64,000 bases of DNA from positions 9,659 to 73,658 of the IMG/VR virus record IMGVR_UViG_3300025326_000023. One strand, given 5' to 3'. Shown here one piece after another: positions 10,642 through 10,800 of this stretch (positions are counted from its first letter, which is position 1; every line of letters begins with the position of its first letter). Position numbers and translations under genes: made by a program. The notes under the pieces were generated by a model that ran no database searches, was not told the origin of the DNA, and worked only from the letters and a program-made list of their open reading frames with translations. The stretch comes from a virus.

Positions 10642-10800
10642 CTCGCATTGCCAAAGTTTTCACTGATCCACTGCGCCGCGCTCAGTGAAGTACTCCAGGC
10701 GGCGGCTGGTTCCCTCGCATTGCCAAACCTTTCAGTCATCCACCGCGCCGCCACAGCGCTCATTCCTCGCCTTGCCAAACCTCTTACTTGCGACTGCGCC
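10642..10800 (-). CRISPR. Divergent mini CRISPR array (3 repeats; 36-nt and 16-nt spacers) overlapping the 3' end of the Cas12f-like gene
   Basis: Repeats at 10642-10677, 10714-10749 and 10766-10800, of the form CTCGC(A/C)TTGCCAAA...(T/C)GCGCC, related to the main repeat. Confidence 0.8.

Follow-up and report, generated by a model that had tools for sequence, protein, structure and literature searches.

Genes and arrays at the locus

The DNA analysed here (the window) is a 64-kb stretch comprising bases 9659-73658 of a 73,658-base IMG/VR record, which is linear and rated 63% complete by CheckV. The genes and arrays of interest lie on its minus strand and are listed in the direction of that strand.

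13027-13557, minus strand: gene for a 176-aa helical/coiled-coil protein, syntenic with the module in related phages.
12672-12968, minus strand: zinc-ribbon gene (ZnR), 98 aa, CxxC-x23-CxxC; its ORF runs into the first main-array repeat and stops at the TAA of that repeat.
12144-12689, minus strand: main CRISPR array, eight repeats of 36 nt (GGCGCAGTAGATGACTAAGAGGCTTGGTGATGCGAG) and seven spacers of 35-41 nt, two of them identical.
10732-12093, minus strand: effector gene, 453 aa from the ATG at 12093, with an AAGGAGG ribosome-binding site (ORF 12132/12093 to 10732).
10800-10766, minus strand: R1', first repeat of the second array (the mini-array), 35 nt, GGCGCAGTCGCAAGTAAGAGGTTTGGCAAGGCGAG; it has lost 1 nt, and T31, which is invariant in the family, is replaced by G.
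10765-10750, minus strand: spacer m1, 16 nt, GAATGAGCGCTGTGGC.
10749-10714, minus strand: R2', middle mini-repeat, 36 nt, fully canonical for the family; it holds the effector stop (TGA, 10734-10732).
10713-10678, minus strand: spacer m2, 36 nt, GGAACCAGCCGCCGCCTGGAGTACTTCACTGAGCGC.
10677-10642, minus strand: R3', final mini-repeat, 36 nt, with the family-conserved G21/G22 broken.
10560-10641, minus strand: trailer together with a tract of AT-rich TCGTCATT-type heptamers, where two convergent genes meet.

The operon is gene-dense. The main array ends 50 nt before the effector start, and those 50 nt hold the AAGGAGG site; the effector 5' untranslated region with its ribosome-binding site (12104-12143, minus strand) directly follows the last main-array repeat. 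Because the array abuts the effector leader, read-through of the array would feed effector expression, and the "guide" of the last repeat would be the effector's own leader. A comparable layout, with one repeat-like unit ahead of the effector gene, is seen in the related locus L002. Two repeat-spacer units at the main array's promoter-proximal end are identical (12546-12653, minus strand; spacer GTCTCCCATGAACCCAGTCAGTCGGTGGAGCAATTC), and the three repeats there have in common a G-to-T change at a near-invariant position of the family. A simple promoter and terminator scan of the minus strand returned nothing useful.

Sixteen related loci were compared, five from IMG/VR and 11 from metagenomes, some being one record from two collections. 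The tblastn comparison of these loci identifies ZnR and the 176-aa helical protein as syntenic partners of the effector. ZnR homologues adjoin the effector in 14 loci; across L002-L017 they measure 85-100 aa, carry CxxC-x~22-CxxC followed by TARVSQLPSE...PL.RCG, and always stand beside the effector or just before the array. Searches of ZnR against PDB and Pfam gave generic zinc-finger noise only. A similar ...G[HS][HQ].APLA... motif is present in the C-terminal tails of four distant longer effectors (P0076, P0126, P0128 and P0142), so ZnR may be a split-off remnant of the C-terminal lobe that the effector has lost. The 176-aa protein has no structural match, and its DUF3102-like character is a lead only. 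Among the ORFs scanned with Pfam (~0.15-28 kb, including all neighbours of the module), no sigma, HTH, Tn7-like or transposition families were found.

The usual order of helical protein, effector, ZnR and array is found in more than 12 loci (L002, L004/5, L007-L012, L015-L017). Here ZnR and the main array are upstream of the effector, and the downstream site, where the family usually has its array, is taken by the mini-array, with no ZnR there. Since the closest relatives (L007, L012, L015 and L017; 51-55% identity) have the canonical order, the gene order of the window is derived. The array of L003 precedes the effector, and in L009 the effector is flanked by arrays; a two-sided arrangement is thus within the range of the family. 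As for homologous loci, where an earlier sequence-only reading of this DNA had proposed to check conservation, a downstream array is typical of the family (more than 12 loci). The related phage records G407-G409 contain no second array or stray repeats.

A second, diverged array downstream of the effector gene

Three variant repeats with spacers of 16 and 36 nt had been described at 10642-10800 by the sequence-only reading, and this description is confirmed. The main-array repeat is identical to R2' at 29/36 positions and to R3' at 26/36, while alignment of R1' to it requires a 1-nt gap. In 30 shuffles of the whole 73.7-kb record the best 36-mer against the main repeat scored 21-23; with identities of 26-29/36 against a shuffle maximum of 23, the mini-repeats are far above chance. 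The mini-repeats, the main array and the effector gene have one common orientation, and both m1 and m2 are unique within the phage record.

A repeat model built solely from the repeats of other phages (model R2; alignment A5, 19 repeats of other loci) returns R2' as its top match in the 64-kb window (19.3 bits, E 1.2e-4), above the main-array repeats (15.7 bits). R3' gets 5.3 bits with this model, and R1' is not among its listed matches in the window. A second model (R1) gives R1' 33.1 bits, with R1' itself among the training repeats. Judged by its repeats, 10642-10800 is a genuine, diverged second CRISPR array of the phage's own dead-Cas12f-like system, and the sequence-only reading was correct on this point. 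By comparison with the family alignment the middle repeat R2' is canonical and the outer repeats R1' and R3' are worn; of the two sites changed in R3', G22 is invariant and G21 is present in at least 90% of other-locus repeats.

R2' and R3' are identical over their last 14 nt. Pairwise differences among the mini-repeats number 2/42 in the last 14 nt against about 24/66 in the first 22 nt, a weak test as it involves three related repeats. The conservation of their 3' part parallels the family-wide pattern, in which conservation is restricted to the 3' part of the repeat, and suggests that the guide-proximal handle was under selection while the mini-repeats diverged. The handle variant of the mini-repeats differs from the main array at 3/16 positions.

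The exact repeat is absent elsewhere in IMG/VR, a search of Rfam gave no match, and the RNA fold of 10600-10810 is no stabler than expected (z = -0.15). The region is identical in the DNA contigs of four runs (three soil, one sediment), so that nothing can be inferred on selection within the population. Among the sequencing runs listed as containing the sequence there was no RNA run.

Repeat stems and ragged arrays in the family

The repeats of the family have in common a 5' G(G/T)(C/T)GC and a 3' GG.TTGG...TG(C/T)GAG. In the family-wide repeat alignment, 97% of cells are paired at the terminal 4-bp helix, as against 65% at the inner helix. A compensatory change of the stem had been proposed for the middle mini-repeat, and part of it stands: the inner-stem pair G19-C23 of the main repeat is indeed A-U in R2', whereas A14-U28 becomes A-C and its pairing is lost. 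At the closing pair of the inner stem A-U is common and G-C is rare across the family, and here the mini-repeat looks ancestral and the main repeat derived. We regard the evidence for the inner hairpin as modest.

Ragged arrays are frequent in the family, with heterogeneous repeats, half-repeats and spacers of 18-23 nt. The repeats of L012 and L009 vary in their 5' halves and are separated by spacers of 18-23 nt beside others of 36-38 nt, and the L015 array terminates in a bare 3' half-repeat. In the array at L010:5480-5800 the repeats are only ~17 nt long (TGTAAGGTGCTGTGA) with spacers of ~20-24 nt, which suggests a minimal handle-plus-guide unit for the family. The lengths of the mini-array are irregular as well (35/36/36 nt for the repeats and 16/36 nt for the spacers, where related-locus spacers also span 18-38 nt). 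Since related arrays are so frequently ragged, its 35/16/36/36/36 layout is within the family range.

The effector is a predicted nuclease-dead Cas12f-like protein

Pfam and NCBIfam searches with the effector returned TnpB matches below threshold only, and a phmmer search of PDB sequences gave a marginal match to "nuclease-deactivated Cas12f" (9n9c, E 0.048). An AlphaFold2 model calculated on an 80-sequence alignment (pLDDT 90.3, pTM 0.82) presents the Cas12f-type fold (WED-REC-RuvC). Its best Foldseek match is AsCas12f (8j12; E 9e-16, TM 0.52-0.57); the natural dCas12f 9n9c is matched at E 1.9e-14 (TMt 0.62), other Cas12f structures are among the best matches too, and TnpB and Cas12k come after them. 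The complete RuvC triad and the TNB zinc finger are not present, as the effector ends after the RuvC-II region.

HMMER, run in full against 1.84 billion representatives, identified ~190 relatives of the effector, 31 of them at E < 1e-30 and most of them 375-450 aa long; their listed lengths are consistent with proteins that likewise stop after RuvC-II. In 185,579 species genomes (one genome per species), one scan by sequence pattern gave no relatives. In the 17 close relatives aligned, conservation stops at about query residue 430 and the proteins end within ~30 further unconserved residues. Neither a zinc finger (CxxC...CxxC) nor RuvC-III was found in these 17 or in six longer distant homologues read entire, in which the extra length is made up of insertions and disordered tails only, and the absence holds irrespective of an array abutting the gene. 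The acidic residues at the predicted RuvC-I (VAELWP) and RuvC-II (IYHEP) strands vary freely among homologues. On the evidence of the alignments and the model, the effector is a nuclease-dead Cas12f-like protein, and the loss of the nuclease is common to the whole family. Because none of the homologues read has a zinc finger or RuvC-III, the truncation is an old one, and the mini-array did not cause it.

The effector reading frame runs into the repeats

The conserved core of the effector (~10840-12093) stops at about residue 430, ~40 nt before R1', and 10732-10839 is an unconserved tail of which the last 69 nt are read from the mini-array. The earlier claim that the effector's final 22 codons and stop codon are read from the repeats holds at the nucleotide level: the ORF ends ...GAVASKRFGKARNERCGGAVDD*, and these 22 codons plus TGA correspond exactly to R1', the 16 nt of the spacer and the first 18 nt of R2'. 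The repeat-encoded tail (residues 445-466) has pLDDT < 50 in the AlphaFold2 model, and homologues end at about residue 430-445.

ZnR ORFs behave in the same way. In at least six loci, the window included, they enter the first repeat and stop at its TAA or TGA (GAVDD*, GAVN*, VGTD* and so on), and the effector enters R1' in the same frame as the ZnR ORFs enter their repeats. As the deletion in R1' removed the in-frame stop and the 35 + 16 = 51 nt preserve the frame, the protein ends at the stop of R2'. Since ZnR ORFs in at least six loci do likewise, the reading of a repeat as a gene tail is a by-product of abutment. A comparison of the flanks upstream of the repeats (effector tail against ZnR tail) gave no significant homology. 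The overlap of effector and repeat looks incidental, neither a coding feature nor an omega-RNA-like arrangement.

The omega-RNA of TnpB overlaps the 3' end of tnpB and has a scaffold of ~130 nt. In the mini-array, too, DNA that encodes guides overlaps the effector ORF at its end, but the overlapped tail is unconserved and disordered in the model, the repeats are 36-nt CRISPR repeats, and there are no IS ends and no tnpA. The analogy with TnpB that the sequence-only reading had drawn is superficial: the overlapped stretch is an unconserved tail without an earlier stop codon.

Spacer targets and guide length

Within the phage record, m1 has no match at up to three mismatches other than itself; at four mismatches there are 14 matches (one being the spacer itself) against 9.75 expected. 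Nor does m1 show, within the record, the partial complementarity to the promoter or locus of its own system that marks self-regulating guides of the CreR or tracr-L type. Searched against the phage's own 73.7 kb at up to 3-4 mismatches, m1, m2 and the leading 20 nt of the trailer gave nothing beyond chance. The mini-array and trailer region has no target among 50,697 phage genomes (blastn) and nothing credible among 401 Planctomycetota genomes, where the top matches all fall on the heptamer tract. No spacer targets were found in five related phage records, and exact 24-mers of m2 (its first 24 nt), S1, S3 and S4 have no match in IMG/VR. A GC-palindromic main-array spacer gave three matches at E 0.01 in the phage collection (blastn, 50,697 genomes), which we judged to be chance. 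The arrays of L003 and L004 gave nothing convincing against related phages. In the collections searched, no target was found for any spacer of either array, and the proposed search of host and phage sequence for m1 and m2 was negative in the phage's own record, the 50,697 phage genomes and the 401 Planctomycetota genomes.

The short spacer is plausible as a guide for such a protein, as had been suggested: the published dCas12f works with guides of 14-16 nt and without a tracrRNA (PMC13472631). In the mini-array, m2 is the most likely working guide, and the array is probably still partly functional through R2' and m2.

Repeat-like units elsewhere in the window

A solo repeat-like unit (GCGGCAGTTTTTGTGTATCAGGTTTGGTAATGCGAG) is located at 62590-62555 (minus strand). 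It agrees with the main repeat at 25/36 positions, where shuffles reached at most 23, and model R1 gives it 22.2 bits (E 0.009). The intergenic region around it measures 150 nt, and a signal-peptide gene has its ATG ~40 nt downstream of the unit, which could be a stray guide unit or a product of chance.

Another unit (GGCGGGAGAATGCTTGAATGATTTGGCAATGCGAG) is located at 54682-54648 (minus strand). Its last 14 nt (54661-54648) equal the 3' end of R2' and R3', and with the full-length model it has E 0.06. One gene has its stop within the unit, and a 61-aa ORF starts there (ATGATTTGGCAATGCGAG = MIWQCE); the product of this ORF is winged-helix regulator-like by eye.

What the mini-array may be

We favor, with a probability of about 0.55, the reading that the mini-array is a genuine second array at the family's usual array site, where the downstream ZnR was lost and at least R2' and m2 still guide the dead effector. 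The downstream copy would have lost its ZnR, leaving an effector ORF without an earlier stop that reads into the repeats up to a repeat-borne stop. The effector mRNA would then carry the mini-array at its 3' end, and R2' with its 36-nt spacer would be loaded as a guide for DNA binding without cutting, silencing a target of the host or of a rival phage. R1' with m1 on one side and R3' on the other would be eroding, and may or may not work.

It is possible, but on balance unlikely, that the mini-array is a pure remnant. A rearrangement would have put ZnR and an array upstream (for example, tandem duplication of the module and then deletions), and the downstream array would be decaying and give no guides. 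Such decay is consistent with the deletion and T31 change in R1', with the G21/G22 changes in R3', with a 16-nt spacer that resembles a deletion product, and with the lack of m1 and m2 targets in the collections searched; related phages, moreover, manage with a single array. Pure decay is harder to reconcile with R2' being closer to the family consensus than the main repeats are, and with the last 14 nt remaining near-perfect in all three mini-repeats despite the drift of their 5' parts.

Two guide sets on one dead effector would be a more elaborate and quite unlikely arrangement, in which a regular upstream array and a fixed 3'-UTR set with the handle TTTGGCAATGCGAG, perhaps joined by the units at 62590-62555 and 54682-48, would be served by one helper RNA in the ZnR gene. 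If true, this would be a virus-borne multi-guide regulator of the CRISPRi type, with guides encoded in a 3' UTR.

Highly doubtful is a dedicated, fixed class of guides marked by the handle TTTGGCAA(T/G)GCGAG and used for autoregulation, homing or gene control, maybe together with the stray units. The sequence-only reading had raised such a class for autoregulation or homing, and nothing in the analysis supports it, with no targets for m1 and m2 and no transposition genes among the neighbouring ORFs scanned. The difference from the main-array handle at 3/16 positions would suit it, as would the single recurrence of the 14-mer at 54661-54648, the repeat-like unit at 62590-62555 and the function of short guides in dCas12f and TldR. 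Against it, m1, m2 and the first 20 nt of the trailer have no match in the phage's own DNA beyond chance (up to 3-4 mismatches), and no transposon genes occur among the ORFs scanned (to ~28 kb). The stray units, at E 0.01-0.06 with the full repeat model, are no better than opposite-strand noise and are absent from related phages.

Hardly credible, finally, is the proposal that array insertion removed the C-terminus of an active nuclease in this phage: the effector ORF does end inside the repeats, but its conserved core stops ~40 nt before R1', the homologues read (17 close and six longer) also end after RuvC-II without zinc finger or RuvC-III, and the RuvC-I/II acidic residues are not conserved.

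Comparison with known systems

In a CRISPR-array-associated cluster of dead Cas12f proteins and in the dCas12f-sigmaE systems (Hoffmann, Wiegand et al., Nature 2026, PMC13472631; 9n9c), the protein likewise has a Cas12f fold and is truncated at the C-terminus, with the loss of part of RuvC. The same study (PMC13472631) describes, besides guides of 14-16 nt, vestigial or discontinuous arrays and repeat-like guide scaffolds (Extended Data 3d, 6f), and proposes transcription control. The dCas12f-sigmaE operons have rpoE and an HTH gene, whereas neither is found here among the neighbours scanned (~0.15-28 kb). The system here is phage-borne and has a conserved ZnR and a 176-aa helical partner, and its sequence similarity to dCas12f-sigmaE is marginal in the comparison with 9n9c, the one member compared. 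A tracr-less single guide is a feature of the published dCas12f.

TldR proteins use one omega-RNA-type guide at a transposon-like end, without a CRISPR array. They are likewise phage-encoded nuclease-dead proteins of the TnpB family, temperate-phage repressors whose guide RNAs repress genes (Wiegand et al., bioRxiv 10.1101/2023.11.30.569447; PMC13418256). The system here differs from TldR in its repeat-spacer arrays.

The likeness to Cas12k is that of a diverged repeat with a short spacer, set apart from a regular array and belonging to a nuclease-dead type V effector. Cas12k of the type V-K CAST systems uses an atypical repeat and a short (~17 nt) spacer outside the main array for homing. Here, in contrast, the ORFs scanned include no tnsB, tnsC or tniQ, the searches gave no target at an attachment site or tRNA, and the units number three, not one.

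Degenerate terminal repeats and vestigial or orphan arrays are characterized by consensus drift, irregular spacer length and a lack of adaptation genes. The mini-array resembles them in its drifted repeats, irregular spacers and absence of adaptation genes, but R2' is not degenerate relative to the family, and all three mini-repeats preserve the 3' handle.

Natural nuclease-dead relatives of Cas12f and TnpB have only recently been shown to be RNA-guided transcription factors, and the array-linked dCas12f group was mentioned in the literature without testing. The locus reveals a phage-borne branch of ~190 proteins with a conserved zinc-ribbon partner. The arrays of this family extend from regular to very ragged (half-repeats; spacers of ~18 nt in relatives and 16 nt here), and this raggedness hints that only ~16 nt of repeat and a guide of ~16-20 nt are needed; such a minimal unit, if real, would be useful for very small programmable DNA binders. 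The mini-array itself is a modest addition and not the cause of the nuclease loss: it shows that arrays are possible on both sides of the gene, that they can be read as a junk protein tail, and that the handle is kept while the rest drifts.

A possible helper RNA in the ZnR gene

A duplex scan of 9-16 kb for a tracrRNA anti-repeat returned the array's own complement and a 2-SD match inside the effector gene, and the candidate was rejected. In an alignment of the ZnR 3' part and first repeat from nine loci, the coding sequence contains two boxes that are invariant at the nucleotide level, CCGCTCG and CTCG(A/C)AAG (12700-12830, minus strand, and eight other loci). Among their invariant nucleotides are third codon positions of a kind unusual in a GC-rich genome. 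The CTCG(A/C)AAG box reads as a GNRA loop closed by C-G, and both boxes contain CTCG, the complement of the repeat-terminal CGAG. RNAalifold pairs the first box with the repeat-terminal TGCGAG; no compensatory change for this pairing occurs in the nine-locus alignment. A helper-RNA element may be embedded in the ZnR gene, which we take as only a lead.

Host lineage and junction elements

The host of this soil phage is probably a planctomycete: the phage gene with a ClpC-N domain is 68-81% identical to genes of Pirellula, Thermoguttaceae and other Planctomycetota. The heptamer tract that follows R3' adjoins the mini-array at a convergent junction with a 1612-aa plus-strand ORF, and the minus-strand transcription unit probably ends at 10560-10641. 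Tracts of AT-rich heptamers of the TCGTCATT/AATGACGA type are present at 10560-10625 and at ~20 other gene junctions of the window. The tract adjacent to the mini-array has matches of 47-66 nt at 76-82% identity, with E down to 4.5e-8 and sometimes in tandem, in many Planctomycetota genomes, which argues that it is a type of junction element of the host lineage.

At 55113-55709 (minus strand) the phage encodes a 198-aa secreted protein; the sequence GGTTTGGTGACGTGAG ahead of the gene matches the repeat handle at 13/16 positions, which is within chance. The C-terminal part of this protein resembles what we take to be a planctomycete-specific domain of the TIGR03000 type, which fits a planctomycete host.
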